64,000 nucleotides of DNA from Bacteroidales bacterium (lineage in GTDB: Bacteria; Bacteroidota; Bacteroidia; Bacteroidales; JAADJA01), in NCBI GenBank assembly GCA_016783885.1, contig JADHVR010000006.1:6539-70538 (forward strand), read 5' to 3'. The notes under the pieces were generated by a model. The model saw nothing but the letters and a program-made list of their open reading frames with translations, was not told the DNA's origin and did not search any database. Below, one piece after another: positions 6,773 through 56,523 of the stretch (positions within the stretch are counted from its first letter, which is position 1; every line of letters begins with the position of its first letter). The translations under genes and the position numbers were made by a program.

Positions 6773-8845
6773 ATGAAAAAAATACTTACATATCTCAGGA
6801 ATCATTATGCTGATATTTCTAAAGGGTCACTTTTTATTTTAAGTGTCGTTTTATTAGTACTTATCTTTCCGAAAGAAGGGAAATTCAAATATGAGTTCCG
6901 GAAAGGGAAGCCCTGGATGCATGAAGACCTGATAGCCCCTTTTGACTTTGCCATTTTGAAACCGGAGCAGGAACTTGAAGAAGAAAAGCAATTTGCCCTG
7001 AAAGACCTGAAACTTTATTTCAAAAAAGATGAGGAGCTATACCAAAAACAAAAAGAAAAACTAATAAATGATTTTGAAACTAAGTGGCAAATTAAATATT
7101 CTGATAAACGAAGGCTTGAGCAGAGAAAGGAAAAGAACCGTAATGTTTGCCTTGCGATTTTTGATACGATAATGCAGCACGGTATTATTGAACTTACTCC
7201 CGAAATAGAAGATAAACCTGAGGATTATACAATAGTTGTTATTACAAATAATGTTGCCGAGGAAAAACAGTTGGGCGATCTTTTTACAATTCATACTGCT
7301 GATAAGTTTATTCATTCCGAACCCGATAAATTCGAACCGGTTGATAAAAACCTTGTAGTAGGGTTATTGGAAAATTCGCTGATTCAAAATATAAAATTCG
7401 ATACTAAAACAACCGAAAGAGAAAAACAGGCTTTGCTCGATAAAATATCATTAACAAGGGGTATGGTACAAAGCGGAGAACGGATCGTTTCTAAAGGTGA
7501 ATTGGTGTCAGGTGAGAAATACATAGTGCTGGAATCTCTCAGGCTTGATTATGAATCCAAATTGGGTTCCTCATTTAAATATGCCGGAATACTTGCAGGT
7601 CAAATCATTTTGTTATCGGTTTCTATGTTATCACTTTTTCTTTTTTTATTCTTTTTTAAAAAAGAAATATATGCCGAAACAAAAAAAATAGTCCTGATAC
7701 TTATTTGTATTTTATTCATGGTGTTAATAACAAGCCTTGTGGTGAAATATAAACCTGATTACCTTTACTTAATCCCTATATGCCTGATACCTATTATCAC
7801 CGGAATTTTTTTCGATACAAGGCTTGCTTTATTTGTTCATTTAATTACCATAATAATAACAGGTTTGCTGGTTCCAAACAGTTATGAATATGTCTTCTTA
7901 CAGTTATTTGCCGGAACCGTTACCATATTGAGTATCGTAAGGCTTGAACGCCGTTCCCAGTTTTTCCTCACATCAGTAATGATATTCTTTACGTATTCGC
8001 TGATATATACAGGTATGACCCTTATTAAGGAGGGCGGTCTTGAAGGAATAAATTACGTTTATTTTGTTCTTTTTGCCGGAAGCGCAACCTTTACATTGTT
8101 TTCTTATCCTATAATTTTCATTTTTGAAAAGTTATTTGGTTTGATAACCGATGTTACTCTGCTCGAGCTTTCAAACACAAACAATAAAGTACTTCGTGAA
8201 TTGGCGTTAAAAGCTCCGGGGACATTTCAACACTCAATGCAGGTGGCAAATCTTGCCGAAGAAGCCATTTACGAAATCGGAGGTAACCCATTGCTTGTAA
8301 GAACAGGCGCTTTGTTTCACGACATAGGTAAAATTGATGACCCTTTATTTTTTATCGAAAACCAAACCACCGGCGTGAACCCTCATGATGAACTAACGTA
8401 TGACGAAAGCGCCAGGATTATTATCGGCCATGTTATCAAAGGCGTTGAAAAAGCAAAGAAACATAAGCTTCCCGAACAGATCATCGATTTTATCAGGACG
8501 CACCAGGGAACCAGGAAAACAGACTATTTTTATACATTAGCAAAAAAGGATAATCCCGATGAGGAGATAGATGAAAGCGTTTATACCTATCATGGTCCCG
8601 ATCCTTTTTCAAAAGAAACCGCCGTGCTTATGATGGCTGATACTGTGGAAGCCGCCTCACGCAGCCTGAAAAACCCCGATGAGGAAGCCATAAACAACCT
8701 TGTTGAAAATGTGATAAACAAACAAATGGAAAACCGGCAGTTCGACAATGCGGATATTACTTTTCGCGACATTAAGAACATAAAGAAGATATTTAAAAAG
8801 AAACTGATGAATATTTATCATTTGAGGATAGAGTATCCGGAATAG
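6773..8845 (+). CDS. 7TM-receptor HD-domain phosphohydrolase (PgpH/YqfF-like HDIG protein)
   Basis: 690 aa. Extracellular N-domain, about seven hydrophobic helices (residues ~270-470), then an HD/HDIG domain (FQHSMQVANLAEE, GALFHDIGK, GHV..G, THQG). Confidence 0.8.
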   Translation: MKKILTYLRNHYADISKGSLFILSVVLLVLIFPKEGKFKYEFRKGKPWMHEDLIAPFDFAILKPEQELEEEKQFALKDLKLYFKKDEELYQKQKEKLINDFETKWQIKYSDKRRLEQRKEKNRNVCLAIFDTIMQHGIIELTPEIEDKPEDYTIVVITNNVAEEKQLGDLFTIHTADKFIHSEPDKFEPVDKNLVVGLLENSLIQNIKFDTKTTEREKQALLDKISLTRGMVQSGERIVSKGELVSGEKYIVLESLRLDYESKLGSSFKYAGILAGQIILLSVSMLSLFLFLFFFKKEIYAETKKIVLILICILFMVLITSLVVKYKPDYLYLIPICLIPIITGIFFDTRLALFVHLITIIITGLLVPNSYEYVFLQLFAGTVTILSIVRLERRSQFFLTSVMIFFTYSLIYTGMTLIKEGGLEGINYVYFVLFAGSATFTLFSYPIIFIFEKLFGLITDVTLLELSNTNNKVLRELALKAPGTFQHSMQVANLAEEAIYEIGGNPLLVRTGALFHDIGKIDDPLFFIENQTTGVNPHDELTYDESARIIIGHVIKGVEKAKKHKLPEQIIDFIRTHQGTRKTDYFYTLAKKDNPDEEIDESVYTYHGPDPFSKETAVLMMADTVEAASRSLKNPDEEAINNLVENVINKQMENRQFDNADITFRDIKNIKKIFKKKLMNIYHLRIEYPE

Positions 8846-8912
8846 GGTTTAATGGTTAAATGCTTAAATGGTTAAATGGTTAAATGCGTTAATGCTTAAA
8901 TGGTTAAAATGG
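8846..8912. repeat. Short tandem repeat tract (TAAATGGT / TAAATGC units)
   Basis: GGGTTTAATGGTTAAATGCTTAAATGGTTAAATGGTTAAATGCGTTAATGCTTAAATGGTTAAAATGGTT lies immediately after the stop codon at 8845. Confidence 0.9.
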
Positions 8913-8914
8913 TT

Positions 8915-9066
8915 GTAACTAATCAATAATTGAATTGAATTTCGTTATATTGTTGAAAAATCAGAAAATAAATACCAATTATCCCCTTCTGGAAGGGGTG
9001 TAGGGGTAGGAATATATACAAATAATATTTATTTTCTGATTTTTCATTGGCACACTGATTAGTTAC
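8915..9066. repeat. 152-bp nested imperfect palindrome (MITE-like or structured element)
   Basis: Outer arms GTAACTAATCA (8915-8925) / TGATTAGTTAC (9056-9066). Inner arms GAAAAATCAGAAAATAAATA (8955-8974) / TATTTATTTTCTGATTTTTC (9026-9045). Central hairpin CCCCTTCTGGAAGGGG. Confidence 0.8.
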
Positions 9067-9165
9067 AAATGATTGAATGGTTGAAGTGTCAGGAAAAATT
9101 CAACAAAGCAAAAATGTTAGAAAATAGAAAATAAAACAACTTTTAATTATAAAATATTAAATAGT

Positions 9166-10239
9166 ATGAAAACTCAACAATATTTTTTTCAACTGATCAT
9201 TATTCTGCTGTTGTTACCTGTTTCTTATGTTTATTCCGCAGATAAAGAACTAAAAGTCGGCTTTCATGTCTCACCGCCATTTATTATACAAAACAATGGT
9301 CAGTACAACGGAGTATGTGTAGATCTTTGGAAAGAAATTGCTGACACCCTGAAAATTGACTATTCATTCAGAAAATATGACCTTCAGGAATTATTGCATG
9401 TAGTAGAAAAGGGCGATATTGATGTTTGTATTTTTCCTCTGACAGTTACTCCGTCCAGAATGAAGAAGTTTAGCTTTACACAGCCCTTTTATATTACAAA
9501 CCTTGCCTTTGCTACTAAAGCTGAACAACGCGACATCCTTATTTTGTTCCTTTCCAATATTTTCTCTTATGGATTTCTGAAAGTCATTATTGTCCTTTTT
9601 TTTGTTATCCTGATATTTGGCTTTATCGTCTGGCTTTCTGAATATAAACACAATCCAAAACAATTTCATAAAGGAATTAAAGGCATAGGTGACGGCATAT
9701 GGTGGTCGGCAGTAACCATGGCTACAGTGGGATATGGGGACAAATCGCCCAAAACACCTTTGGGAAGGATATTTTCCATGATATGGATGTTTACGGCTGT
9801 AATCCTGATATCCAGTTTTACGGCAGGCATATCATCCAGCCTGACAGTAAATAAGCTTAAATCGAAAATAAATAGTATTGATGATCTCAGAGAGATAAGT
9901 GTTGGTTGTGTTACAGCCTCAGGCACCTCTGAATTTCTTGATCATTACAAGATACATTATGCCGGTTTTAATAACGTGGAAGAAGGGTTGATAGCAGTGA
10001 ATGAAGGTTCGATCAAGGCTTTTGTTCACAATGAGGTGATTTTGAATTACTATGTGCATACTTATAAGTTTGATGAGGTGATAAATGTGATCCCAAGTTC
10101 ATACTGTAAGGAATATTTCAGCTTTGCCTCTGCTGACAATGAACTCCTGGATAAGATCGATGAGACGCTGGTAGAGATAATTGTAAACCCCGGGTGGGAA
10201 ACTATTTTGAAGAAATATCATATAAAACACAGGAATTAA
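9166..10239 (+). CDS. GluR0-type ligand-gated potassium channel (periplasmic-binding-protein lobes split by a 2TM K+ pore)
   Basis: 357 aa. Signal peptide, SBP_bac_3-like lobe 1, TM helix FLKVIIVLFFVILIFGFIVWL, pore loop WWSAVTMATVGYGD (TVGYGD selectivity filter), TM helix IFSMIWMFTAVILISSF, then SBP lobe 2. Confidence 0.75.
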   Translation: MKTQQYFFQLIIILLLLPVSYVYSADKELKVGFHVSPPFIIQNNGQYNGVCVDLWKEIADTLKIDYSFRKYDLQELLHVVEKGDIDVCIFPLTVTPSRMKKFSFTQPFYITNLAFATKAEQRDILILFLSNIFSYGFLKVIIVLFFVILIFGFIVWLSEYKHNPKQFHKGIKGIGDGIWWSAVTMATVGYGDKSPKTPLGRIFSMIWMFTAVILISSFTAGISSSLTVNKLKSKINSIDDLREISVGCVTASGTSEFLDHYKIHYAGFNNVEEGLIAVNEGSIKAFVHNEVILNYYVHTYKFDEVINVIPSSYCKEYFSFASADNELLDKIDETLVEIIVNPGWETILKKYHIKHRN

Positions 10240-10265
10240 AATAAAAACCATAAAATTGATTAATC

Positions 10266-10607
10266 ATGGCAACAAAACTTGAAACTTCGTATCCTGTAAA
10301 TTCAAATGATGTTTATTTAACAGTCATTATCGGTGAAGCACAATTGGGTAGCTCCTCCGTAACTTTGGATAGTGAGATTTTATGTACAGGTGAAATAAAA
10401 GACCTTAAAATTGGGAACGGAAATGATATTAAAGGAAAAATGCTTAGGGTCAAATCCATTGTAACAGACATTAACGATAATACTAATCGTACTTCAATAA
10501 TTTACCGGTTCAGGGGTCGTAAGGCTGATACTGAATATCTTCTTGAGGAAACTGTTAGTCAGGATGGAGATTCTGTAATTTATAGGGCATATATAAAATT
10601 CATTTAA
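10266..10607 (+). CDS. Hypothetical protein (113 aa)
   Basis: ORF with ATG start, packed between neighbouring genes. No recognisable motif. Confidence 0.4.
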   Translation: MATKLETSYPVNSNDVYLTVIIGEAQLGSSSVTLDSEILCTGEIKDLKIGNGNDIKGKMLRVKSIVTDINDNTNRTSIIYRFRGRKADTEYLLEETVSQDGDSVIYRAYIKFI

Positions 10608-10619
10608 AATGATAACATT

Positions 10620-11978
10620 ATGTGTAATTTCAAATATTTTGTTACGAGCCTTATCATTATTTTTCTGTGTTTGTTTTATAAAGCGACACTTTCACAGCAA
10701 GCTGATGAAATCAAATTAGAGGAATTACGAACACCAACTGCACCGGGATTTGTCTTATTGGGTGTTGAGCCTACTGCAGTTGACAAACCAACTACTCCAC
10801 GAGACCTTGCCAGTACTTTACTTTCGACCTTTAAAGAAGGAAAGATAGCACCTGACTTTGCAATTGAGTTCTCACCATATTGGCTTTGTTCACATCCCTA
10901 TTTAACTCTTTTAGATGATTACCTGAATAGAAATAATGTTGGAAGAAACATTATTCAGAATTTTTCTATTTCAGCAGCTTCTTCTGAAATGAATATTAAA
11001 AAAGATACCACCATAATTACAGGCACAGGTGTAGGTTTTGGGTTTAGGACACACATATTATCACAAAAAGCACCGGAGGAAACCCGAAATTATTTGAGTA
11101 AATTAAAGCAGATATATGAAGTTCAGTTTATAACTCTCATCCTTTTAAATGTAGAAAACAAACTTGAAGATAACCAAACTGTTATGGATAAAAATATATT
11201 GTTAATATATTTGAAAGATGTGATTGATACTTATTTAAATGATCCATCTAAATTTTCCTCTCTGCCTCTTTTTAAATATTCGGAGAAGGATAAGAAAAAA
11301 CTATTTAACCAGGCTTATGATGAACTAAAAACCAGAATAGAAAAAGAAACGGTGAATTCGCAAACTGATGCTGAAGATCTTATATCTAAGATAATAATCG
11401 AATATCAAAGGAAAAAAATTACCGGCAAAGTACAAGAACTTAAAGATATGAATTTAAATAATAGTGGCTTTTCCCTCGAACTTGCCGGTGGAATGGTAAC
11501 AACCTTTGTCAATGGTCAGACCAACCAGGCTTATATTACAAAATATGGACTTTGGCTTACTCCGTGTTATTCATTACCCCTGCAAAAATCTACTGCCTCC
11601 ATAATAAAAGAATTGAATTTTATCGGGGTAGTTCGTTATTTATGGAACAGCAATTTAGTTGATTCTGCTTCATATACCGATATTGGTTTCCGGCTTATGT
11701 ATGAATCACGAAAAATTAGTGTATCGGCAGAGGGTTTATTGAGAGGTCAAATTCGATCATTAGATGAAGAAGGTACTTTCAGGTTTTCTCATACAAACAG
11801 GTTTAGTTTCAATTTAGAATATCAAATAATGAACAATATCTATATCACCTATAGCATTGGGAAGGATTTTGAAGACAATTCAATAAGTTTTTCAGGTAAG
11901 CAGGAAGGAAATTTCTTTACACTCTTAGGCGTTAACTTTGCTTTGGGACGGAAAGAAAACTTCAAAATTGAAAATTAA
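10620..11978 (+). CDS. Hypothetical secreted/outer-membrane protein (452 aa)
   Basis: Signal-like N-terminus (LIIIFLCLFYKATLSQ). The C-terminal alternating pattern ending in F..LG.NFALG suggests beta-strands. No family recognised. Confidence 0.45.
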   Translation: MCNFKYFVTSLIIIFLCLFYKATLSQQADEIKLEELRTPTAPGFVLLGVEPTAVDKPTTPRDLASTLLSTFKEGKIAPDFAIEFSPYWLCSHPYLTLLDDYLNRNNVGRNIIQNFSISAASSEMNIKKDTTIITGTGVGFGFRTHILSQKAPEETRNYLSKLKQIYEVQFITLILLNVENKLEDNQTVMDKNILLIYLKDVIDTYLNDPSKFSSLPLFKYSEKDKKKLFNQAYDELKTRIEKETVNSQTDAEDLISKIIIEYQRKKITGKVQELKDMNLNNSGFSLELAGGMVTTFVNGQTNQAYITKYGLWLTPCYSLPLQKSTASIIKELNFIGVVRYLWNSNLVDSASYTDIGFRLMYESRKISVSAEGLLRGQIRSLDEEGTFRFSHTNRFSFNLEYQIMNNIYITYSIGKDFEDNSISFSGKQEGNFFTLLGVNFALGRKENFKIEN

Positions 11979-17103: not shown

Positions 17104-18140
17104 AAATAGATATAAACAAGATAAAGCACAATGCTAAAACTTTAAAAGAATTATTTGCTAAAAAAGGGATATCTGTTACTGCCGTGATAAAGGGAGTAAC
17201 AGGATCTCCTGAAGTTGCAAATGCAATTCTTGAGTGTGGGATCACTACGATAGCAGTTTCTCTGGTTCAGAATATAAAAAAAATGAAAGAATTCGGAGTG
17301 AAAGCAAAATTTTTGCTTACACGACTGCCTAATCTCACCGAAGTTGAAGATATTGTTAAATATGCTGATATAAGTTTAAACTCTGAGATATCAACAATTA
17401 AATTGTTATCTGAACATTCTCTTAAACAAGGTAAAAGACATAAAGTAGTTTTAATGTTAGAACTCGGTGATTTAAGAGAAGGGATATTACCTGAAGATAT
17501 TGACTCGGTTATTGAACAAATTATACCGTTAAAAGGAGTTGAATTACATGGCATTGGCGCAAATCTTGCCTGCTTTGGAGGTGTTAAACCTTCAGAGGAA
17601 AATATGATTGAGTTATCTCAAACAGCAGAACGTATACAAGAAAAATACAACATAAAGCTGCATATGATTTCAGGTGGAAATTCTGCAAATTATGAATGGT
17701 TTCTATCTACTGAAAACACAGGGAAAATTAATAACTTAAGAATTGGCGAAGCTATTTTACTTGGCAGGGAAACTCTACACAGAAACAAAATCCCGAAATT
17801 ATTCACAGATGCATTTACTCTAATATGTGAGGTTATCGAAAGTAAAATAAAACCATCTTTGCCTTATGGTGAAATATGTCAAAATGCATTTGGAGACACA
17901 CCTGAGATTGCAGATATTGGTAATATCAATAGGATTATAATTGGAATCGGGGAACAAGATGTTGATACAAAAGCTATAACTCCCAGAATAAATGCCAAAG
18001 TTATTGGAGCAAGCAGTGATCATTTAATTTTACATTCCAAAAACCATATTGAAGTAGGAAGTGAAATAGAATTTGATATTAACTATTCAGCCTTGCTCCG
18101 GTTATCGACTTCACCTTATGTGAAGAAAGTGTTTATTTAA
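17091..18140 (+). CDS. PLP-dependent alanine/ornithine racemase-family enzyme
   Basis: 349 aa. Overlaps the upstream gene by 13 nt. The N-terminus LEIDINKIKHNAKTLKELFAKKGISVTAVIKGV carries the AVxK PLP-lysine context of the alanine racemase N-terminal TIM barrel. Confidence 0.6.
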   Translation: MPTLEIDINKIKHNAKTLKELFAKKGISVTAVIKGVTGSPEVANAILECGITTIAVSLVQNIKKMKEFGVKAKFLLTRLPNLTEVEDIVKYADISLNSEISTIKLLSEHSLKQGKRHKVVLMLELGDLREGILPEDIDSVIEQIIPLKGVELHGIGANLACFGGVKPSEENMIELSQTAERIQEKYNIKLHMISGGNSANYEWFLSTENTGKINNLRIGEAILLGRETLHRNKIPKLFTDAFTLICEVIESKIKPSLPYGEICQNAFGDTPEIADIGNINRIIIGIGEQDVDTKAITPRINAKVIGASSDHLILHSKNHIEVGSEIEFDINYSALLRLSTSPYVKKVFI

Positions 18141-18152
18141 TTCTTTTAAGCT

Positions 18153-19544
18153 ATGCGACTATATCTGATCAATCCTTCCAACCCGCTCGTCAGTATCGTC
18201 AGAGTCAGGGAAAACCGCTGGAACCGTTACCGGGTGTGGAAACCGCTCAGCCTTATGGTTCTCGCGGGGCTCACTCCAGTGGAGTGGGAAGTCTCAATTG
18301 TGGACGAGAACCTCGGCGTGCCGGACTATCCGTCCATGCCTCTGCCTGACCTGGTGGGGATCACCGCTTTTACCTCACAGGCGAACCGTGCCTATGAAGT
18401 GGCCTCTCACTTCCGGCGCCTGGGCGTGCCCGTTGTCATGGGCGGCATTCACGCAACCATGTGCATAGACGAAGTCATGGAGCATGTGGACTCGGTTGTC
18501 ACGGGGGAAGGCGAAGGCATCTGGACTCAGGTGCTGGAGGACGCCCGGCACGGCTGCCTGAAACGCCGGTATGACGGAGGGCTCGCCGAGATAAGCGATA
18601 TCCCAGCTGCTCGTCATGATTTGTTGGCTACAGGATATGCCTTCGGAGCCATTCAGACCACGCGCGGCTGTCCCTTGAACTGTAGTTTCTGCAGTGTAAC
18701 AGCGTTCAACGGGGCCCACTACCGGATGCGATCCATTGGGGACGTTGTTCGGGAATTCCAGTCGATCCATGAGAAACATGTTCTGGTGGTGGATGACAAC
18801 CTCATTGGCACGCGCCCTGAACACATCGCCCGCGCTAAAGAAATGTTCCGCTCCATTGCCCAGGCGAACCTGAAAAAGAAATGGGTTGCCCAAGCCACCA
18901 TCAACTTCGCCGACGACGAAGAACTCCTGGCGTTGGCCATGAAGGCCGGATGCAGAGGCATCTTCATCGGCTTTGAATCACCCGCGCAGGAAGGGCTCCT
19001 GGAAATTGGCAAGAAATTCAACCTTCTGAAAGGCCGGGACTTCCGCGCCTCTGTACGGCGCATCCAACGGCACGGAATCCTGGTCGTGGGTTCCTTTATC
19101 ATCGGTTTGGACATAGATGAACCGGGCATCGGAAAACGAATCGCCAAGGCAGCCAGCCAGTACGGCGTGGACCATCTCAACGCGCTGTTTCTGACACCCT
19201 TGCCCGGCACGCGCCTGTGGGACCAGATGAAAGCAGAGGGCCGCATCGCCCTCGATACATTCCCGGAAGACTGGAAATACTACACGCTGACCTTCCCGGT
19301 AGCCCGGTATAAGAATCTGTCTCTGGATGGTATCAGTAACGAGATGCTCTCCTGCGACCGGACTTTCTATTCTATGCCGCGCATTCTACGCCGGGTTTGG
19401 GGCAACCTGTGGGGTCGCCGCCAGCCGCTGATCAGTCTGGTGGCCAATCTCTCATATAGGAAAAATTTTCAGCTGAGTTGTAAAGCATACGCAGCCTTCA
19501 AGCATTACTTAGGCAATAGGAACGACTGTGTAAAAAAGTTATGA
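18153..19544 (+). CDS. B12-binding-domain radical SAM protein
   Basis: 463 aa. N-terminal B12-like domain (DLVGITAFTSQ...VVMGGIHAT), CxxxCxxC cluster motif (GCPLNCSFCSV) and a DUF4070-like tail. GC content is far above its surroundings. Confidence 0.8.
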   Translation: MRLYLINPSNPLVSIVRVRENRWNRYRVWKPLSLMVLAGLTPVEWEVSIVDENLGVPDYPSMPLPDLVGITAFTSQANRAYEVASHFRRLGVPVVMGGIHATMCIDEVMEHVDSVVTGEGEGIWTQVLEDARHGCLKRRYDGGLAEISDIPAARHDLLATGYAFGAIQTTRGCPLNCSFCSVTAFNGAHYRMRSIGDVVREFQSIHEKHVLVVDDNLIGTRPEHIARAKEMFRSIAQANLKKKWVAQATINFADDEELLALAMKAGCRGIFIGFESPAQEGLLEIGKKFNLLKGRDFRASVRRIQRHGILVVGSFIIGLDIDEPGIGKRIAKAASQYGVDHLNALFLTPLPGTRLWDQMKAEGRIALDTFPEDWKYYTLTFPVARYKNLSLDGISNEMLSCDRTFYSMPRILRRVWGNLWGRRQPLISLVANLSYRKNFQLSCKAYAAFKHYLGNRNDCVKKL

Positions 19545-46550: not shown

Positions 46551-47228
46551 AAGAAATAATTTTTAGATAAAAAGAAACTCTTTTAAAATGTAAAATTACG
46601 GATTTTCCAGTATAATTACGTTGAAAATTGTTAAATGTTGTTAATTGACTAATAAAATGATAATAATAAGTTACGGGTTACTGACTTCAGTTTGCCGGTT
46701 GCGGATGTATCAGATACTAAATACTCAGGGCTGTTTAATTCTCTGATTAACAATTTTAAAAAATTTACTAATTACTTTTGGATTAACTAACGCACTATGT
46801 GCCATGGCTCAAATCCGAAAGAGCTATGTTATAACTGATCAAATCCCTGCCAAAGCAGGCATAGACCCATACCTGGTATTAATTGACCGGGAAATGGATA
46901 ATAATGTATGTGAGGTGAAAGAATGGGATGATTTGCTTGTTTCGTTTTTAATGAACCTGTCTTTAAAATCAGTATTGCAGTATAGCACAGCTAATTGACT
47001 TTCAAACAGGATATCCAAGATGAATTTATCAGGCAAGTTAAACCGTTAGTTATCGGGAGGGTGAATGCAGGCGTGTTGAAAAAAGTTTTGTTCTCACTTC
47101 CAAAAATGTCAATAAACGGAACACGAATTTTGTAAAGCGAAGCTATATAAAATTGGTGTAGAGTAGTAGTGAACATTATACTGTTAAAATAATTTACCAT
47201 ATACGGTTTTTTGCATGATTATACTTAT

Positions 47229-47236
47229 TATTTTTG
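47229..47236 (+). promoter_or_regulatory. TAnnTTTG -7 box upstream of the Dcm operon
   Basis: TATTTTTG at 47229-47236, 25 nt before ATG 47261. An upstream TTTG lies at 47210-47213. Confidence 0.4.
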
Positions 47237-47260
47237 TACTTTAGTAAATTTTTCTCCAAA

Positions 47261-48490
47261 ATGGAAAAATCTACCTATATTGATATATTTGCTGGTTGTG
47301 GAGGATTATCATTAGGCTTATTTAATTCTAGTAAGTGGAAAGGTATTTTTGCAATTGAAAAAAGTCCTGATGCATTTAATACTTTAGAACACAACTTAAT
47401 TCATAACAAAAATCATTTTGATTGGCCAAGTTGGTTACCTCAAACATCACATGACATAAAAGAAGTTCTGAAAAAATATAACAACGAACTCATATCTCTT
47501 AGAGGAAAAATTGATTTAGTAGCAGGTGGTCCACCATGTCAGGGTTTTTCTCCAGCTGGAACAAGAAATGAAGCTGATTCGAGAAATAAGCTTATAAAAT
47601 CATATATTAAGTTTATAAGATTAATCCAGCCAAAAGTGATTTTCTTTGAAAATGTTAAAGGATTCACTCAAAAATTTAAAAAAAATAAAACAAAAGGCAT
47701 AGCATACTCTGATTATGTATTAAATGTTTTAAAATGTAATAGGAAAGATTATATAGGTTATGATGTTTATGGAGAATTAGTTGATTTTTCAAAATTTGGT
47801 ATTCCTCAGAAAAGAACAAGGTTTATTTTAGTTGGGATTAGAAAGGATTTAATTTTAAATGTTCGAGCAAATGTATTTTTTAAAAATATTTGCGAAAACA
47901 AAGAGTCATTTTTAATCAATAAAAATTTAGATACAAGTGTTACTTTATATGATGCTATTTCTGATTTACTTCAAGCGAATAATCAAATTGGATCACCAGA
48001 TTCCAAGGGATTTAAAGCAGGTGCTTATGGTAAAATATCATCAAAATATCAGGAATATATTCGTTCAGATATAAAAGCTATAAATCCTGATAGTCATCGT
48101 TTTGCGAAACATAGAAAAAAAACAGTAGAAAGATTTAATTTTATCCTAAATAATGCAAGCAAGAATAAAACTCTATGTTCTGAGATTAAAAATAAATATG
48201 GCATAAAAAAGCATACTGTTATACCATTAGATGAAAGTGAACCTGCAGCAACCTTAACAACCCTTCCTGACGACTATATTCATTATAGCGAGCCCCGGAT
48301 ATTTACTGTTCGAGAATATGCTAGAATCCAATCATTTAATGACTGGTTTGAGTTTAAGGGGAAATATACAACTGGAGGAAAATTAAGGATAAAAGAAGTA
48401 CCTAGATATTCACAAATAGGTAATGCTATACCCCCCTTGTTTGGTGAACAAGCAGGAATTGCTTTAAAAAAAATACTCGAAAATGGCTAG
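47261..48490 (+). CDS. dcm: DNA (cytosine-5)-methyltransferase
   Basis: Motif I DIFAGCGG, motif IV GGPPCQGFS, motif VI FENVKGF, motif VIII QKRTRFILVG, motif X GNAIPP. The ORF track starts at TTG 47234; ATG 47261 is preferred. Confidence 0.9.
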   Translation: MEKSTYIDIFAGCGGLSLGLFNSSKWKGIFAIEKSPDAFNTLEHNLIHNKNHFDWPSWLPQTSHDIKEVLKKYNNELISLRGKIDLVAGGPPCQGFSPAGTRNEADSRNKLIKSYIKFIRLIQPKVIFFENVKGFTQKFKKNKTKGIAYSDYVLNVLKCNRKDYIGYDVYGELVDFSKFGIPQKRTRFILVGIRKDLILNVRANVFFKNICENKESFLINKNLDTSVTLYDAISDLLQANNQIGSPDSKGFKAGAYGKISSKYQEYIRSDIKAINPDSHRFAKHRKKTVERFNFILNNASKNKTLCSEIKNKYGIKKHTVIPLDESEPAATLTTLPDDYIHYSEPRIFTVREYARIQSFNDWFEFKGKYTTGGKLRIKEVPRYSQIGNAIPPLFGEQAGIALKKILENG

Positions 48491-50807
48491 GGAGCTTCAA
48501 TTTAGAATTAGTGCTGCTTTAAAGAACATTATTGGACGTGATTTAATCACAGATGATTTTATTGCAGTATTTGAACTAGTAAAGAATTCCTTTGATGCTT
48601 ATGCTAATAAAGTAAAAATTGCCTTTGAAAAAGACAGGCTGATTATATGGGATGATGGAAAAGGGATGGATTATGACGACATAGTGAATAAATGGCTATT
48701 TGTGGCCTATTCTGCTAAAAAAGAAGGAATTGAAGATAAAGAATTAAGAAGAGAAGAATACCAAGATTACAGGAACAGAATACAACCAAAACGTTACTAT
48801 GCTGGTGCTAAAGGAATAGGTAGGTTTTCATGCGACAGGTTAGGAAGTCACCTTATACTAACTACTAAAAAACCAAGTAAAAAAGCTGAATTAGAACAAA
48901 TAATTGTTAACTGGGATGACTTTGAAAAAGATACAAAAGATCAATTTATTAATATAAATGTAAAGCATGAAAAAAATCCAACGATTGAACATTTGGGTTT
49001 TAAACAGGGAGCAATAATAGAGATTTCTGGATTAAGGTCTGATTGGAAAAGGGAAAAGATTCTTAATCTTAAATATTCTCTTGAAAAACTAATTAATCCA
49101 TTTGATATAATTGATGAAAAGGATGCTCAAAAGAAAGAGAACAAATTCACGATTAGCATTGAAGCTAAGCATGAATTAGAAAAAGATCAAGAATATAAAT
49201 CACCTCGAGAAAGAGTCAACGGGCCTGTAAAGAATTTTATATTTGAAACTCTTAATGTTAAAACCACCCAAGTAATAACCGAAATTGATCAGACGGGCAA
49301 ATATATAACGACTGAATTAAAAGATAGAGGTGTTGTAATATATAAGATAAGGGAGGAAAATGTGGATTTTCCTTTTCTTGAAGATGTAGTTGTAAAATAT
49401 CATTTGTTTTATTTAAATAGGGCTGCAAAAAATAACTTCACAAGGCAGATGGGAATACATGCTGTCAATTTTGGCTCAGTTTTCATCTATAAAAATGGGT
49501 TTAGAGTTTATCCTTTTGGAGAAGTAGGTGATGATACACTTGGTATCGACCATAGACATCAACAACGTTATAGAAGTACTTTGAGTACAAGAAACCTGCT
49601 GGGAAGAATTGAAATAACCGGGGAAAATGATGAATTCAAAGAAGCATCTAGTAGGGATGGTGGATTAATTAAGACCGCAAGTTATGAACAACTTGTTGAA
49701 GGTTTTATGGAAAAGAGTTTAAAGCGATTGGAAAATTATGTTGTCGACATCCAATGGAAAATAAAGGAAGATCAATTTAAACAAGATTTATCAGAGCTTG
49801 ATAATATTGGGGCTAAAGGTGCAATTGCGAAACTGGTTTCAAAATTTGCCGAATCTGACAGAATTGAGCTTTTAGATTATGACAAAGATTTTCTAAATAT
49901 CGTTACTGAAAAACTTGAAGAGTTAAACCCGGAGATATTTGAGAACTTATCTAAGTTAGCTAACAAAACAGGAGATGAATATTTTATTAAAGAAATTGAA
50001 GAAGCCCAAAAGAAATATCATAACCTAATTGAAGAAATAGCTGAAGCGGAAAGAAGAGCTCTGGAAGAAGAAGAAGCAAGGCGTAAACTTGAAGAAGAGC
50101 TAGAAATAGAAAGGCAGAAAAATACGTTCTTGTCGGCGAACACAAGGGGAATAAGTAAGGAGGCACAAGGACTTATTCACAATATAAAGCTGACAACAAA
50201 AAATATCGAGGGGAATGTAGAAACCCTTATCAGGAAAGCAAAGGATGGAATGCTACAAAAAAGAGAGCTATTGAGAAGATTAACTGATATTAAACTAAGT
50301 GCAGATAAGGCTCTGAAGATAAGTAAGCTTATTACCCGATCTAATTTTAAAGAACAAGCAGCCAAACAAAAAGTTGACTTGGCAAAGTATATTGAACAGT
50401 ATTTCTTACTATATTCTGATTTATATGAGAAAAATCAATTACAGTTTGATTTACATGTTAATGATGCTTGTTTATGGACTAAGATTAGCGTATTAGAGAT
50501 TTCGATAATACTGGATAATTTAATTTCAAATGCAGAGAAATCAGGAGCAAAAAATATTTACATAGCACTTAACAACACCATAGATAATGGACTTGAAATG
50601 ATATTTTCGGATGATGGTAAAGGAGTCAATAAAAAATATCTTGATAATGTTGACTATATTTTTGATTTGGGTGTAACAGATACTTCAGGATCTGGTATTG
50701 GACTTTATACTGTTAGATCATCTTTGAAAAGTATGCAGGGCGAAATTATGTTTATTGGAAATGGTATTTTTTTAAAAGGAGCGACATTTCAGTTAAATTT
50801 CAAATAA
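48483..50807 (+). CDS. Dual GHKL-ATPase protein: N-terminal MORC/Hsp90-like (HATPase_c_3-type) module, coiled coil, C-terminal histidine-kinase-like DHp + CA module
   Basis: 774 aa. N-module: ELVKNSFDA (N-box), WDDGKGM (G1), GAKGIGRFS (G2). Charged coiled coil EEIAEAERRALEEEEARRKLEEELEIERQ. Candidate phospho-His in GLIHNIK (about residue 566). C-module: LDNLISNAEKSGA (N-box), FSDDGKGV (G1), GSGIGLY (G2). Start overlaps the dcm stop (ATGGCTAG). Confidence 0.7.
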   Translation: MARELQFRISAALKNIIGRDLITDDFIAVFELVKNSFDAYANKVKIAFEKDRLIIWDDGKGMDYDDIVNKWLFVAYSAKKEGIEDKELRREEYQDYRNRIQPKRYYAGAKGIGRFSCDRLGSHLILTTKKPSKKAELEQIIVNWDDFEKDTKDQFININVKHEKNPTIEHLGFKQGAIIEISGLRSDWKREKILNLKYSLEKLINPFDIIDEKDAQKKENKFTISIEAKHELEKDQEYKSPRERVNGPVKNFIFETLNVKTTQVITEIDQTGKYITTELKDRGVVIYKIREENVDFPFLEDVVVKYHLFYLNRAAKNNFTRQMGIHAVNFGSVFIYKNGFRVYPFGEVGDDTLGIDHRHQQRYRSTLSTRNLLGRIEITGENDEFKEASSRDGGLIKTASYEQLVEGFMEKSLKRLENYVVDIQWKIKEDQFKQDLSELDNIGAKGAIAKLVSKFAESDRIELLDYDKDFLNIVTEKLEELNPEIFENLSKLANKTGDEYFIKEIEEAQKKYHNLIEEIAEAERRALEEEEARRKLEEELEIERQKNTFLSANTRGISKEAQGLIHNIKLTTKNIEGNVETLIRKAKDGMLQKRELLRRLTDIKLSADKALKISKLITRSNFKEQAAKQKVDLAKYIEQYFLLYSDLYEKNQLQFDLHVNDACLWTKISVLEISIILDNLISNAEKSGAKNIYIALNNTIDNGLEMIFSDDGKGVNKKYLDNVDYIFDLGVTDTSGSGIGLYTVRSSLKSMQGEIMFIGNGIFLKGATFQLNFK

Positions 50808-51481
50808 TGGAAAAGGTTTGTTTATTTGTTGATGATAATCTGCAAAGAGATGTTATTGATAATATCCCACCACGGGCAAAAGTCAAGGGGCTAAATGTTA
50901 CTTGTTATGAATTTAATCCAACTGATAGAGAGTTCCAAAACAAGGATTTAGACATAGATTTTGAAAAAGTGAAACAAGTGCTTCAAGATAATTGGCAACA
51001 CAGGAAATTGGATTTAATTGCCTGTGATTATTATTTTGGTGATGACAATGTGAATGGGCTTTCTATTATTGAGTTTATTAGGACATTTAATCAAAAGTGC
51101 CCAATTATTCTGTATTCTGGCAACTTAGTTAAGATAATTGCGGATATTCTTCAAGGCTATAATGGAAGGAATCCTCAACCTCTAGTGGACAAACTTAAAA
51201 AACTTTTTAGAGCAAATATAGCTGACTTTATTGATAGAGAAGATTATACAAATGATGTGATAACTCTTTTGAAAGAAACGCCTTTGGAGATGATAATTGC
51301 TGATAAATTGATGGAATATGCCGATTATGAATTCAAAAGTGGTTACTTAGCTTTTAAAGGGATGAAGTTAGGACAGATTGCGAAGGCTTTAAGGAATAAT
51401 GCTCCACAAGCTGGTGAATTTAAACAGGAAATCATTGAACAAGCAATTGCCCATTTGATTGCTTTAAATGAAGAAGAATAA
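50807..51481 (+). CDS. Receiver (REC)-domain protein with ~80-aa helical C-terminal extension
   Basis: 224 aa. VCLFVDD (acidic pair D9/D10), DLIACD (candidate phospho-acceptor D74), PIILYSG (S104, exactly 30 residues after D74, as for D57/T87 in CheY). Start overlaps the upstream stop (TAATG). Confidence 0.6.
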   Translation: MEKVCLFVDDNLQRDVIDNIPPRAKVKGLNVTCYEFNPTDREFQNKDLDIDFEKVKQVLQDNWQHRKLDLIACDYYFGDDNVNGLSIIEFIRTFNQKCPIILYSGNLVKIIADILQGYNGRNPQPLVDKLKKLFRANIADFIDREDYTNDVITLLKETPLEMIIADKLMEYADYEFKSGYLAFKGMKLGQIAKALRNNAPQAGEFKQEIIEQAIAHLIALNEEE

Positions 51482-52174
51482 ATGTCGTACGTACTTTGTA
51501 TAAGGCCACAAGATAATACAACGAAATTTCTTGAGCGAATTCCTAACGCACTGGAAAACACTTTCCAGGAAATTGTTAAGTATATTAATATTGAACCAAG
51601 CGATCAAGCCCATGTTACATGCTATGATGAAATATTAAGAGTTCCAGAAGATGGATTTATTATCTTTTTAGGGCATGGAACAAGAGAATATTTACAGGGT
51701 GCCGTTATCAGGGGCTTTTCTAATGCTGGCTACGCTAAGCGCGAATTCATTAATTCCGATAATATAGATATATTCAAGGATAAAAAGGTTTTTTGTTTAT
51801 CCTGTTATTCATCAGATAAGTTGGGGGATATAGCCATAGAAAAAGGAGCTAAAACGTTCGTTGGTTTTGGAGAAATACCAACTGAGCTAAGCGAATTTGA
51901 AGAAGAACAAGAACAACCCTTGAAAAGAATTATAAGTGATTTTAAAGGCATAATCCAAGAAACTGTCAGGGAATCCCTAATATTTGCTTTGCATAACGAC
52001 TTGTCAATTAATCAAATGATTTTACATTTAAAGTTGTTGCTAAATAAAAAGCACGGGGATGTTATTATTAACCATAAAGGCAAACGAGATAGAAGGGAAT
52101 TAGGAGAATTTATTTATAAAATGAAAAAGCAAATTAAGGTTTTTGGGAATGGGGATTTTAAGGTAATTGGGTAA
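51482..52174 (+). CDS. Small caspase/CHAT-like protein (putative His-Cys dyad); hypothetical effector
   Basis: 230 aa. GFIIFLGHGT (His65 after a beta-strand) and KKVFCLSCYSSDKLGDIAIEKGAKTFVGFG (Cys108 after the next strand, then GA..V.G, as in CHAT domains). His-Cys spacing is about 43 residues. The ATG directly abuts the upstream TAA. Fold assignment is inference only. Confidence 0.4.
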   Translation: MSYVLCIRPQDNTTKFLERIPNALENTFQEIVKYINIEPSDQAHVTCYDEILRVPEDGFIIFLGHGTREYLQGAVIRGFSNAGYAKREFINSDNIDIFKDKKVFCLSCYSSDKLGDIAIEKGAKTFVGFGEIPTELSEFEEEQEQPLKRIISDFKGIIQETVRESLIFALHNDLSINQMILHLKLLLNKKHGDVIINHKGKRDRRELGEFIYKMKKQIKVFGNGDFKVIG

Positions 52175-52817
52175 TAAACTTACAGTTTTTATTAAGTGAA
52201 CACATCGGGCATTTAGGATCTCTTGCTTTGCAAATAGATGCTGCAAAATCAATTATAGCCCAATTAATTTCATATGAGTTTATGGAAGTTACAAGCTTGT
52301 GAGCTAAATCTTGTAAGTAAGGATCGTACCGAATATCAGATAGTTTTCTTTGGCCAAAATATCTTTCTATAACTCTAGCCATGTTAACATCTAAAAGAGG
52401 AGAAGACTTTTTTAAAATAAATAGTTCATAAGCATTAGTTATGTATTGACCCATCATTGGTAGTTCTTCAACTTCAGACCTTTCTTTTGGGAACCTACCT
52501 TTTCTTTTTTTTAATTCCTGAGCTAATTTAAATAATCTGGAACCTCTTTGTTTGTATAAGCCAATTGGTCTTAGGCTCTCTTGCAATTCTTCCTCTGTTG
52601 CATTTCCAAGTTGTTTCCAGGAAGGATATTTACGAATGAATTTTGGAAAAAATTTAGCTATAGTTACCGCTTTCGTTCTTTGTAATAATACCTCTGATAC
52701 AATTTTTTGGTAATTAGTAGCAGACTTATTCCTCCAAGGGAAATGCCTTCCGTTTTCTTTATACCAAGAAAGTAGTTTGGTTTGGAATTCAACAACTTGT
52801 TTATCGCTTATCGTCAT
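52158..52817 (-). CDS. HhH-GPD / [4Fe-4S] DNA glycosylase of the MutY-EndoIII family, Mig-like (candidate T:G mismatch glycosylase)
   Basis: ORF 52158-52859. Likely start MTISDKQ (ATG at 52815-52817). FPWR, LLQRT, HhH LPMMGQYITNAY with Tyr where EndoIII has Lys120, catalytic Asp in LLDVNMARV, Cys cluster CKARDPKCPMCSLNKNC. The 3' end overlaps the convergent gene by 17 nt. Confidence 0.7.
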   Translation of the reverse strand: MTISDKQVVEFQTKLLSWYKENGRHFPWRNKSATNYQKIVSEVLLQRTKAVTIAKFFPKFIRKYPSWKQLGNATEEELQESLRPIGLYKQRGSRLFKLAQELKKRKGRFPKERSEVEELPMMGQYITNAYELFILKKSSPLLDVNMARVIERYFGQRKLSDIRYDPYLQDLAHKLVTSINSYEINWAIIDFAASICKARDPKCPMCSLNKNCKFITQLP

Positions 52818-53360
52818 ATAACAAAAGTAATATGAATATTTCGAAAGTACGCCAACCAAAAAAAACCCATACCTTCATTTCATTCCAACAAATAAAACGG
52901 ACATGGGCTTGACCAGTAAAATAATTTCAATTCTTATATTTGAAGATGAATTAAATCTTTATTGAAAATTCACTGAGAGTTTATAGTAAAGATGAACCGG
53001 GTAAGGGAGCTATTGTCGCAGAATAGGAGATTGTTCAAATGGCAAAAATAACTTGACAGTTCAAAAAGAAGGTAACCGAAATGTAAACAGAAAAATTTGA
53101 TATACCAAACATTAAAGACAGTATATTTTAATGTTTGCTCGGTTTTTGGCATTAAATCATTTGAGGAATTATTAGCGATTGCCTTATGGGTGGATAATCC
53201 GGGCGCTAATAATTATAGGATTTGTAATCCGTTTTAGAATAAAGATATTCGTGGATTATAAATCCTTTGCTATTTCTTTTCGGATTATCCGGCGCTTTTT
53301 CCATCGCCTAAATCCGAAAAAGCTCTGGGATTTTGGCTCTTGGCTTTTACGTCTAACTAT

Positions 53361-55340
<1,980 letters not shown>

Positions 55341-55477: not shown

Positions 55478-56371
55478 TCAGAAGTATTTATACTCATATT
55501 TCAAAATATACTGCTGGTTAATTCCCTGCCCATGAAAATTGATAAACACTTTTGTTTCGATCACATTATTGTTTTCATTAAATTTTCGTTCGACTGAATT
55601 GTTGACTTCCCCTTCCTTATTTGTTTCAATCTGCTCAATGGCGTTTCCTCTTTCGTTATAAGTGATTTTGGTGGTATTTTGTCCGTAAGGAGTTTCTTCT
55701 GTAATTTTTATTAATTTACCGTTATCGTCATAATAATAACCGGCTTTGCCTGTTAATTCTTCTTTTTTGTTATACTGTCGTTGTTCTAAAAGATTTCCTT
55801 TTTCATCGAAAGTATTTCTGAATGTAACATTTTCTTCTTCGGCAAACCATACATTATGTTCTGTAATATTTCCCGAATCATCTAATTCAAATGTTTCCTT
55901 TTTCATCAGTTCGTCATACTCATATTCTTCTTTCAGTATCAGCTTCCCATCTTTATATTGAGCCGTATCCTTTGCCTCAATCTCACCATAAGAATCCACC
56001 GTTATCTTTTCTGTCAGATTTTGCTCAGCATCATATTTGTACTCGATGGTGTCTTTTGTCCTGTCCTGGTAATGCACGAATGATTTGATGATTTTTCCTT
56101 TTTCATCTCTTTCATACGTTTTATGTTCGGCAATTTCATTTTTATCCAAATAGCTGATCTCTTCGATAAGGTTGCCTTTTTCATCATACTTGTTTTCATA
56201 CTTATCTTCTATTTTGCCCGAAGAATCGTATTTTATTTCTAAAATCATATTGCCGTTTTTATCGAATTCCGAATGGCTGTATTTAGAGCCTTTCACTTCC
56301 GGTTGTTCTGCGTGGATGTTTTCGGCAACGTAATCGTACTTGTATAAAGTAGATGATTTGATTTTTCTCAT
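55478..56371 (-). CDS. Hypothetical repeat protein (YD/RHS-like short repeats)
   Basis: ORF 55478-56419. Likely start MRKIKSS. Repeated ~20-25-aa units with Y.YDEKGNLIEE-type cores. No signal peptide seen. Confidence 0.45.
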   Translation of the reverse strand: MRKIKSSTLYKYDYVAENIHAEQPEVKGSKYSHSEFDKNGNMILEIKYDSSGKIEDKYENKYDEKGNLIEEISYLDKNEIAEHKTYERDEKGKIIKSFVHYQDRTKDTIEYKYDAEQNLTEKITVDSYGEIEAKDTAQYKDGKLILKEEYEYDELMKKETFELDDSGNITEHNVWFAEEENVTFRNTFDEKGNLLEQRQYNKKEELTGKAGYYYDDNGKLIKITEETPYGQNTTKITYNERGNAIEQIETNKEGEVNNSVERKFNENNNVIETKVFINFHGQGINQQYILKYEYKYF

Positions 56372-56523
56372 GTGCTTAAAAATTTGTAATATATTAACTG
56401 TTTGCCACTTACATTCCAATCATCCCCCGCTGTGTCTCAATATAAAAAAACATAAGTGTTTCATAATTATATTAAATTATAAATTAATTTTGGCAATGAT
56501 ATAAAATTTAAATTTAAGTTACT

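Follow-up and report, generated by a model that had tools for sequence, protein, structure and literature searches.

The window analysed here, a stretch of 64,000 nucleotides from contig JADHVR010000006.1 of a Bacteroidales bacterium (assembly GCA_016783885.1, positions 6,539 to 70,538), carries on its forward strand four genes arranged head-to-tail, which encode a C5 DNA cytosine methyltransferase (Dcm, here termed gene 1), a protein with two GHKL ATPase modules and the features of a histidine kinase (gene 2), a stand-alone receiver (gene 3) and a small protein with conserved Cys and His residues that is probably caspase-like (gene 4). A fifth, convergent gene encodes a HhH-GPD DNA glycosylase (gene 5; Table 1). 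With about even confidence, the comparison of related loci and the structure models allow this locus to be read as a compact, horizontally mobile defence cassette related to restriction-modification (R-M) systems, in which a phosphorelay would be placed between the methylase and a caspase-like effector. The list of open reading frames (ORFs) and the junction strings bear out the translational coupling of the four genes reported in a preliminary description of the window. The Dcm stop codon (TAG, 48488-48490) lies within gene 2, whose ATG is found at 48483, in an 8-nt overlap (ATGGCTAG); the stop of gene 2 and the start of gene 3 have one base in common (TAATG, 50805-50809), and the start of gene 4 comes immediately after the stop of gene 3 (TAA-ATG, 51479-51484). 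The block is also, as had been noticed, more AT-rich than gyrB, with a GC content of 31.7% versus 40.5% for the latter and 36.0% for the window. The four genes listed earlier are thus real, but gene 5, the 3' end of which overlaps gene 4 by 17 nt, had been overlooked. The exact window proteins carry only a 'hypothetical protein' annotation in a Bacteroidetes metagenome-assembled genome (MAG).

Table 1. Coordinates of the cassette genes, of their main sites and of the flanking elements, in positions of the window.
Feature	Position	Strand	Remarks
Gene 1, C5 DNA cytosine methyltransferase (Dcm)	47261..48490	+	409 aa; PF00145, MTase_II, TIGR00675
Gene 2, predicted paraMORC-type GHKL ATPase fused to histidine-kinase core	48483..50807	+	774 aa
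Gene 2 HATPase_c_3 (Hsp90/MutL/MORC-type), residues 27-158	48561..48956	+	7e-22; HtpG/TRAP1/PMS1 matches
Gene 2 His566 codon, invariant H-box	50178..50180	+	family alignment
Gene 2 C-terminal HATPase_c, residues 673-771	50499..50795	+	1e-15; kinase matches
Gene 3, predicted stand-alone receiver with acidic helical C-terminal domain	50807..51481	+	224 aa
Gene 3 phospho-acceptor Asp74 codon	51026..51028	+	58-relative alignment
Gene 4, putative caspase-like (clan-CD-like) alpha/beta domain and helical bundle	51482..52174	+	230 aa
Gene 4 His65 codon	51674..51676	+	invariant in family
Gene 4 Cys108 codon	51803..51805	+	invariant in family
Gene 5, HhH-GPD / 4Fe-4S DNA glycosylase, convergent	52158..52817	-	PF00730
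Putative Bacteroidetes-type promoter	47209..47236	+	TTTG near -33; TATTTTTG (TAnnTTTG) at 47229-47236
Left copy of ~76-nt imperfect direct repeat	46753..46829		local alignment versus shuffles
Right copy of the same direct repeat, just 3' of gyrB	53255..53328		local alignment versus shuffles

Loci with gene 4 were collected from 185,579 species genomes (9 loci), from JGI metagenomes (27 loci) and by contig look-ups, and the five window proteins were mapped on the related loci by tblastn, giving 39 non-redundant gene 4 loci; each of the following counts covers those loci in which the flank suffices to judge. Gene 3 lies directly upstream of gene 4 in 32/32 loci, one of which (the plasmid locus L015) was assigned via hhalign, and gene 2 is present in 21/21. 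Dcm is found in 22/22, preceding gene 2 in 18 of them and following gene 4 in the other 4, while a HhH-GPD glycosylase gene accompanies gene 4 in 8/13 loci. The co-occurrence of genes 2, 3 and 4 with dcm, put forward in the preliminary description as something to be looked for, is therefore complete (100% of the judgeable loci). The overlapping junctions recur as well (in locus L001, for instance), and since the same overlaps and the same order are met in dozens of unrelated contigs, neither the tight coupling nor the order can be attributed to chance.

The hosts of gene 4 loci comprise many Bacteroidota together with Acidobacteriota and Proteobacteria, including a Pyrinomonadaceae MAG (Acidobacteriota), a 'Rhizobium' MAG and a Stenotrophomonas plasmid. 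Flanking genes differ at every gene 4 locus, and some of the loci adjoin a TniQ/TnsA, serine recombinase or SIR2 gene. In the window, the five-gene cassette is bracketed by an imperfect direct repeat of ~76 nt, the local alignment of which scores 26 versus 13.6 +/- 1.7 for shuffled sequences (a score reached by 0/500 shuffles) and which may represent an insertion-site duplication; gyrB ends at 53361. No integrase was identified inside the repeat-bracketed cassette, and no regulatory RNA or tRNA was found at its borders. Obligatory linkage, varied hosts and flanks, and the flanking direct repeat together point to a mobile unit, the genes of which are held together by selection.

Three of the related loci deserve separate mention. 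On plasmid CP031730.1 of Stenotrophomonas rhizophila (L015), the order is Dcm-GHKL-REC-gene 4, and the receiver-like and gene 4-like genes (8132-9462 and 9463-11047) are missing from the gene table of the plasmid. After the cassette come a gene of the SIR2 family (Pfam, 8e-24) and TnsA, which places it in a Tn7-like or defence context. In L004 (972-4944) and L005, three proteins are encoded downstream of the gene 4 homologue, namely one of 530 aa that weakly matches P-loop families (AAA_16/KaiC-like), a GTA_holin_3TM protein and a serine recombinase, which suggests a mobile-element context.

The product of gene 4 is the least familiar component of the cassette. A profile search covering 1.84 billion representatives delineates a family of 460 clusters at 50% identity (279 at E<=1e-10), the listed members of which all stand alone and are about 215-250 aa long. 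In alignments of 51 and 137 sequences, the sole invariant columns are His65 and Cys108, and Gly66, Gly73, Ser110 and Gly128-Phe129 are conserved in at least 90% of the sequences. The AlphaFold model (predicted local distance difference test score, pLDDT, 90.6) shows an alpha/beta domain (~1-135) with a helical bundle after it (~148-217), and it places His65-Gly66 directly after strand 3 (59-63; IIFLGH65G) and (Ser/Ala)107-Cys108 directly after strand 4 (102-106; VFCL(S/A)C108). A His-Gly and an Ala-Cys pair, each following a hydrophobic strand, constitute the signature of clan CD peptidases. In agreement with this, caspase-1 is the only protein that recurs in searches of gene 4 profiles against PDB sequences, where it accounts for all the closest matches to natural proteins; FLGHG of gene 4 aligns to FMSHG of caspase-1 (His237) and CLSC to IQAC (Cys285), and hhalign returns the same alignment. 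The Foldseek comparison of the model with the PDB lists caspase-3 (probability 0.97, E 2.6e-3) and separase (probability 0.99, E 1.1e-2, template modelling (TM) score 0.48), as well as caspase-7 and procaspase-3, with probabilities of 0.97-0.99 and TM scores up to 0.48 for caspase-3, caspase-7 and separase. The corresponding search of BFVD returns a giant-virus 'Caspase domain protein' and 'Caspase' (E 5e-3 and 3.6e-2), and Peptidase_C80 is matched, short of significance, by 2/51 family members (E 0.028).

Each of these matches is weak, and a number of observations tell against a caspase-like assignment. Searches of Pfam, NCBIfam, PADLOC and PHROGs gave no match for gene 4, and among 51 family members none matches the Pfam models Peptidase_C14, CHAT, C13, C25 or C50. 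The caspase-1 matches are sub-threshold (E 0.018 and 0.18 with two gene 4 profiles) and weaken with the larger, 137-sequence profile (0.18 versus 0.018); with one of the alignments (A5), the top rank goes to a designed repeat protein (8g8i_A, E 0.017). The hhalign comparison reaches a probability of only 21% (pairwise E 1e-3), Foldseek yields no PDB match at E<=1e-3, with flavodoxin-like folds interleaved among the caspases, and the operon offers no evident substrate for gene 4. What favours a clan CD peptidase is the concurrence of the motifs, the strand order and three independent weak lines of evidence, namely the profile searches of the PDB with hhalign, Foldseek on the PDB and Foldseek on BFVD. 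Caspases, metacaspases, CHAT proteins, separase, legumain and C80 peptidases display the same strand order and the same His-Gly and (Ala/Ser)-Cys pairs, but the catalytic domain of gene 4 is much smaller (~135 aa) and comes with a C-terminal helical bundle of its own. We thus consider it reasonably probable that gene 4 encodes a caspase-like (clan-CD-like) hydrolase. The preliminary description had proposed a caspase/CHAT-like protein, and this stands as the best available reading; supported as it is by sub-threshold matches only, it falls short of proof. Two other roles of gene 4, that of a second 'buffer' receiver and that of the carrier of a zinc site, were considered and discarded, since H44, C47, C105 and D11 are invariant in the close clade only and are lost in the wider family, and since a His occupies the phospho-Asp position.

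Judging from its domain composition, gene 2 encodes a soluble GHKL ATPase of the paraMORC type, which a coiled coil links to the core of a histidine kinase. Both GHKL modules recognised in the initial analysis were recovered by the domain searches, together with the histidine of the dimerization and histidine phosphotransfer (DHp) region and the N, G1 and G2 boxes. The N-terminal HATPase_c_3 domain has intact Bergerat motifs (E31/N35, DxGxG and GxxGxG), its nearest solved relatives by sequence being HtpG, TRAP1 and PMS1. It is followed by a conserved middle region (NGFRxxPYGxxGDD ... GRxEI) without a family match and by a Glu/Lys-rich coiled coil, at the end of which lies the H-box helix with the motif A-x-G-L-[IV]-H566-[NAS]-I-K. 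This H-box aligns with the 'HE' H-boxes of the sister kinases described below, and the C-terminal catalytic domain matches WalK/YycG, ZraS, PhoQ and QseC. His566, N683, DxGxG (DDGKG, 710-714) and GSGIGL (736-741) are invariant in 10/10 aligned proteins. The four residues singled out at the outset for mutagenesis in the kinase, the receiver and gene 4 (His566, Asp74, His65 and Cys108) have indeed proved invariant in their families. Gene 2 also matches the BbrUII/HgiDII restriction-enzyme family (1.8e-19, 70 bits) and PADLOC REase_II (2e-10). Its identity as such an enzyme was rejected on the grounds that the GHKL domain alone matches (model positions 14-210 of 659) and that 70 bits compare with a cutoff of 550. 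Among PHROGs, phrog_6203 (function unknown) matches the GHKL and middle regions (3e-10) and phrog_10912 ('kinase') the C-terminal part (1e-9), which indicates that phages carry relatives of both halves of gene 2.

Gene 3 consists of a REC domain (~1-146) and a helical domain (~147-224) without a family match. In a direct Pfam search its match to Response_reg is sub-threshold (4.7e-4), and a k-mer search for relatives gave 2 proteins; 64 were recovered with an alignment drawn from neighbouring genes. The AlphaFold (AF2) model built on 58 homologues (pLDDT 91) matches 85 PDB chains at E<=1e-3, and those listed are all receivers (PorX, CheY, PhoP, NtrX, Spo0F). With Foldseek E values of about 1e-5 (best 8e-6) and its functional residues kept, gene 3 is, by fold and conserved positions, the receiver that it had been taken for. 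Among the 58 relatives, D9, D74 and S/T104 are conserved in 58/58 and the aromatic switch F/Y141 in 54/58, while 7 relatives match Response_reg weakly and 8 match cREC_REC weakly. Family searches that included the relatives gave no helix-turn-helix (HTH) or winged HTH (wHTH) match for gene 3, the fold of the C-terminal domain not having been searched separately. This domain is acidic in 58/58 relatives (median net charge -5, isoelectric point (pI) about 4.8), and its acidity in every relative makes a DNA-binding output unlikely. The same domain is found in the gene 4-linked receiver of the Stenotrophomonas plasmid (hhalign probability 93%); against receivers linked to HNH or metallo-beta-lactamase (MBL) effectors, the probability is 2-6%, in single-sequence comparisons of low sensitivity. 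The second domain of the receiver would hence appear to change with the effector, as a docking or activation domain would.

That gene 1 is a C5 cytosine methylase can be read from its motifs and family matches. The match to PF00145 (2e-51) reaches 175.6 bits versus a cutoff of 22, PADLOC MTase_II and TIGR00675 match at 1e-75 and 2e-42, and the canonical motifs noted previously are all legible in the translation (FAGCGG, PPCQGFS, ENV, QKRTR and GNAIPP), corresponding to motifs I, IV (PCQ), VI, VIII and X; the catalytic PPCQ motif begins at 47531. Gene 5 matches PF00730 (3e-14, 53.7 bits versus a cutoff of 26.2) and, over its full length, the PADLOC/REBASE 'Type II nicking endonuclease' PDLC03398 (3e-34). 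Its best curated model is mutY (2.5e-43), at 148.6 bits below the 286.5-bit cutoff, and the nth model was also matched below its cutoff. The protein, of ~220 aa, has a MutY/EndoIII-like core without the C-terminal domain of MutY and ends in a Cys cluster, C-x7-C-x2-C-x5-C (CKARDPKCPMCSLNKNC). Glycosylases of the Mig type travel with 5-methylcytosine (5mC) methylases and are functional analogues of Vsr; Mig.MthI of Methanobacterium is reportedly a T:G mismatch glycosylase encoded beside such a methylase. By analogy, gene 5 is likely to encode a glycosylase for T:G mismatches arising from 5mC deamination, in place of Vsr. The predicted repair of such mismatches by gene 5 suggests in turn that gene 1 really methylates the host genome, and the pair would constitute another natural case in which a methylase is accompanied by its own enzyme for deamination repair.

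A tblastn search with gene 2 against plasmids returned 101 records, among which are sister loci where, next to a methylase, a kinase of the same architecture precedes a small receiver and a variable third gene. This third gene encodes an HNH protein in Bacteroides finegoldii, next to an N6 methyltransferase (MTase), and in Deinococcus gobiensis, next to an Eco57I-type MTase, and an MBL-fold hydrolase in Burkholderia, next to a type I M-like MTase. Sister loci in Campylobacter (with dcm) and Enterobacter encode a longer receiver protein, and in S. rhizophila the third-gene slot is taken by a gene 4 homologue. Gene 4 thus sits in the operon slot held by HNH or MBL nucleases in sister systems. 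A further sister kinase cassette on the Hymenobacter plasmid NZ_CP014303.1 (L019, 6725-8711) adjoins an N6 methylase, and the two genes after its kinase (367 and 289 aa) are without a Pfam match and may represent additional receiver or effector types.

Parts of this arrangement have been described before. R-M operons that combine MORC or paraMORC GHKL ATPases with cytosine methylases, with Vsr and with nucleases that can be swapped have been recognised (Iyer, Abhiman & Aravind 2008, PMC2292703). Those operons have in common with the locus reported here the N-terminal MutL/Hsp90-type GHKL module, the cytosine methylases and the Vsr-type repair, and their swappable effectors are of the HNH, RE-fold and TIR types; a histidine-kinase core at the C terminus is not described for these families, nor is a receiver or a caspase-like protein as their partner. 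Closer to the present kinase, proteins combining HATPase_c_3, 'HEF_HK' and HATPase_c have been found adjoining 'Response_reg_2' proteins (Bellieny-Rabelo et al. 2021, PMC8011034), with a linkage of 91.6% over 644 regions; a C5 methylase usually lies upstream of them, and Vsr or HNH genes nearby. The authors of that study proposed a cytoplasmic system akin to two-component systems and tied to R-M, and speculated that such pairs control R-M systems. The likeness to these pairs extends to the soluble HATPase_c_3 module with a DHp-like His and HATPase_c, to the receiver-like neighbour, to the linkage with a C5 methylase and to the gene for repair of 5mC deamination. The H-box, however, reads H-[NAS]-I-K here and H-E/D in the HEF_HK proteins, the repair enzyme is HhH-GPD instead of Vsr, and the caspase-like partner has no counterpart reported in PMC8011034. 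At E<=1, PF19191 (HEF_HK) does not match gene 2, and PF19192 (Response_reg_2) matches neither gene 3 nor any of its 58 relatives; this negative is weak, given that six plasmid kinases of the same architecture are also unmatched by PF19191, so that the model is either narrow or absent from the library.

The nearest validated relative is Ambrosia, an anti-phage system of Pseudomonas reported in a 2025 preprint (10.1101/2025.09.30.679545), in which AbrR, AbrA, AbrB, AbrC and AbrD are, respectively, an XRE regulator, an N6 MTase, a kinase/Hsp90-like ATPase, a REC-wHTH protein and an HNH endonuclease. Every gene is required, the receiver substitution D60A abolishes defence, and the system defends against phage without host toxicity (10.1101/2025.09.30.679545). 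Compared by architecture only, Ambrosia and the present locus resemble each other in the methylase, the kinase/Hsp90-like ATPase, the receiver with its phospho-Asp and the final effector, and the kinases of Ambrosia-like plasmid loci (MTase-kinase-REC-HNH) are homologous to gene 2, with the H-box aligned. The two differ in the methylase (N6-adenine in AbrA, C5 here), in the effector (HNH in AbrD, a caspase-like Cys-His protein here), in the second domain of the receiver (wHTH there, acidic and helical here), in the HipB-like XRE regulator AbrR, no equivalent of which was found here, and in the additional HhH-GPD glycosylase. In Detocs, made up of the DtcA kinase, the DtcB buffer receiver and the DtcC receiver-PNP (purine nucleoside phosphorylase) effector, the same logic of a His-Asp phosphorelay leading to an effector can be recognised, as had been pointed out. 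Detocs is not a relative: the locus lacks a buffer receiver, a PNP effector and a transmembrane or tetratricopeptide repeat (TPR) sensor, the methylase is obligatory here, and no PADLOC Detocs model matches genes 2-4 at E<=1. The WASA GHKL system of V. cholerae (VcSduA) was likewise set aside as a different one, being a Shedu system with a PD-(D/E)xK nuclease.

No caspase-like partner of such R-M-linked kinase/receiver cassettes was found in PMC2292703, PMC8011034, the Ambrosia preprint or full-text literature searches. The composition with a caspase-like effector therefore appears to be undescribed, as the preliminary description had supposed for the operon as a whole; the kinase-receiver-methylase logic was already published, in 2021 (PMC8011034) and again with Ambrosia in 2025. 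The latter is moreover a named system of the same layout (MTase, kinase/Hsp90-like ATPase, REC and HNH), and so corresponds in part to the named system of identical architecture that the preliminary description had listed as a refutation. Four departures from the described systems can be put forward: effectors of a caspase-like family, a receiver adaptor specific to the effector, a C5 methylase and a Mig-like glycosylase.

Expression of the cassette would start from a putative promoter in front of Dcm, drawn from the Bacteroides consensus. TAnnTTTG is the -7 promoter consensus of Bacteroidetes, and such a box (TATTTTTG) is preceded by a second TTTG ~18 nt upstream. Position 47229, which had been taken as the start of the block, belongs to this box and has no start codon. 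The ORF of Dcm opens at TTG 47234, from which the product would have 418 aa, but the likely start is ATG 47261 (409 aa). The 700-nt gap upstream contains no HTH-like ORF and is without conserved coding signal.

The components of the cassette suggest a working model in which the N-terminal GHKL/clamp (paraMORC) module of gene 2 would sense a DNA-level or infection cue, with Dcm methylation marking self DNA. The signal would pass through the coiled coil to the kinase, resulting in the phosphorylation of His566, and the phosphoryl group would be transferred to Asp74 of gene 3. Phosphorylated gene 3 would then bind gene 4 and switch it on via its family-specific acidic C-terminal domain, and the Cys-His hydrolase would cleave a host or phage protein and thereby stop the infection. 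The central element of this model, the direct activation of a minimal caspase-like protease by a His-to-Asp phosphorelay with a dedicated receiver as adaptor, is advanced here as a tentative proposal, which the sequence comparisons make conceivable and which we ourselves hold to be somewhat doubtful.

Several features of the relay and of its setting are at odds with this model. Position 567 of gene 2, immediately after the predicted phospho-His, is N in 8, A in 1 and S in 1 of the aligned proteins, and no acidic residue is found there; the sister kinases keep 'HE' where the gene 4-linked clade has 'H[NAS]IK'. HisKA-type kinases use an acidic residue after the phospho-His for autophosphorylation. 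In gene 3, the second acidic residue (position 10) is D in 43, N in 14 and E in 1 of the 58 relatives, and position 144, which is R or K in 56/58, is more commonly Arg than Lys (36 versus 20). The window flanks are made up of housekeeping genes (Tsp protease, gyrB), with no defence island, and no relative of gene 4 was found in viral contigs, a result on which a phage origin of the cassette was also rejected. Finally, the authors of the Ambrosia study favour transcriptional control by the receiver, and not direct gating of the effector (10.1101/2025.09.30.679545).

This last view, applied to the present locus, would have the kinase and the receiver do no more than regulate expression of the cassette after infection, without direct gating between proteins, gene 4 being an induced effector or an accessory. 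In Ambrosia, reporter-replaced regions are induced by infection and defence depends on the receiver Asp (10.1101/2025.09.30.679545), and the control of R-M systems by such pairs has been speculated upon (PMC8011034). Gene 3, on the other hand, has no HTH or wHTH match, and its C-terminal domain is acidic throughout (58/58, pI about 4.8) and co-varies with the effector, differing from that of HNH- or MBL-linked receivers. An acidic adaptor that co-varies with the effector makes transcriptional control an unlikely output and direct gating at the protein level a testable one, and the translational coupling of four genes behind one promoter leaves little room for differential induction. Control by transcription alone thus seems to us an unlikely account of the locus. 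A little less unlikely is that gene 4 acts in the restriction slot of a type II-like R-M system, controlled by ATP and the phosphorelay, as an effector other than a protease, be it a novel nuclease or a thiol-dependent hydrolase or transferase with nucleic acids or small molecules as its targets. The HNH and MBL nucleases at the same position in sister systems, the resemblance of the N-terminal domain of gene 2 to the BbrUII/HgiDII family and REase_II, and the sub-threshold nature of the caspase similarity would all fit. That resemblance, as noted above, is confined to the GHKL domain, and family searches revealed no HNH match in gene 4. Within 137 sequences only His65 and Cys108 are invariant, with no conserved acidic cluster suited to the chemistry of a metal-dependent nuclease, and the spacing of HG...(A/S)C and the aligned catalytic residues of caspase-1 point to clan CD.

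The varied genomic contexts and taxa of the cassette, the direct repeat that brackets it and the obligatory presence of Dcm (22/22 loci) would also be expected of a selfish addiction or epigenetic module, in which a loss of Dcm methylation would be sensed by the GHKL-kinase and gene 4 would kill the cell, a post-segregational killing by which the island would be retained in the genome; R-M systems behave in this way, as discussed in PMC8011034. Ambrosia, as the nearest validated relative, nonetheless defends without host toxicity, and while addiction and defence are compatible, we regard addiction as an improbable explanation by itself. An accidental juxtaposition of an orphan Dcm and a glycosylase with an unrelated two-component pair and a hypothetical gene is refuted by synteny, with 100% co-occurrence, overlapping junctions kept across 20-30 unrelated contigs and genes that stay linked though their order is permuted; next to no likelihood is left to it.

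Two observations concern other parts of the window. A sharp spike in GC content at 18001-19000 (0.535 versus about 0.36) overlaps a 463-aa ORF (18153-19544), and no rRNA or other Rfam family was detected at this spike. On the reverse strand, 55478-56419 encodes a 313-aa protein of short RHS/MORN-like repeats (with KYD..G.. periodicity), between gyrB and the next operon.

Kinase/receiver pairs linked to R-M systems are widespread (644 regions, PMC8011034), and the present locus bears on the way in which their phosphorelay connects to an effector. In the variant described here, the nuclease is swapped for a Cys-His protein that is probably caspase-like, and the DNA-binding receiver for a co-varying acidic adaptor. 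Gene 4 defines an unannotated family of about 460 clusters, without a model in Pfam, NCBIfam or PADLOC, that seems to be confined to this cassette; were it proteolytic, it would count among the smallest enzymes of the caspase type and would provide methylation-based immunity with a protease arm. Should the direct gating of gene 4 by the phosphorelay prove true, killing or arrest in an epigenetic (5mC) system of self/non-self discrimination would be carried out by a phospho-gated cysteine protease, and Ambrosia-class systems would signal at the protein level, beyond transcription alone.

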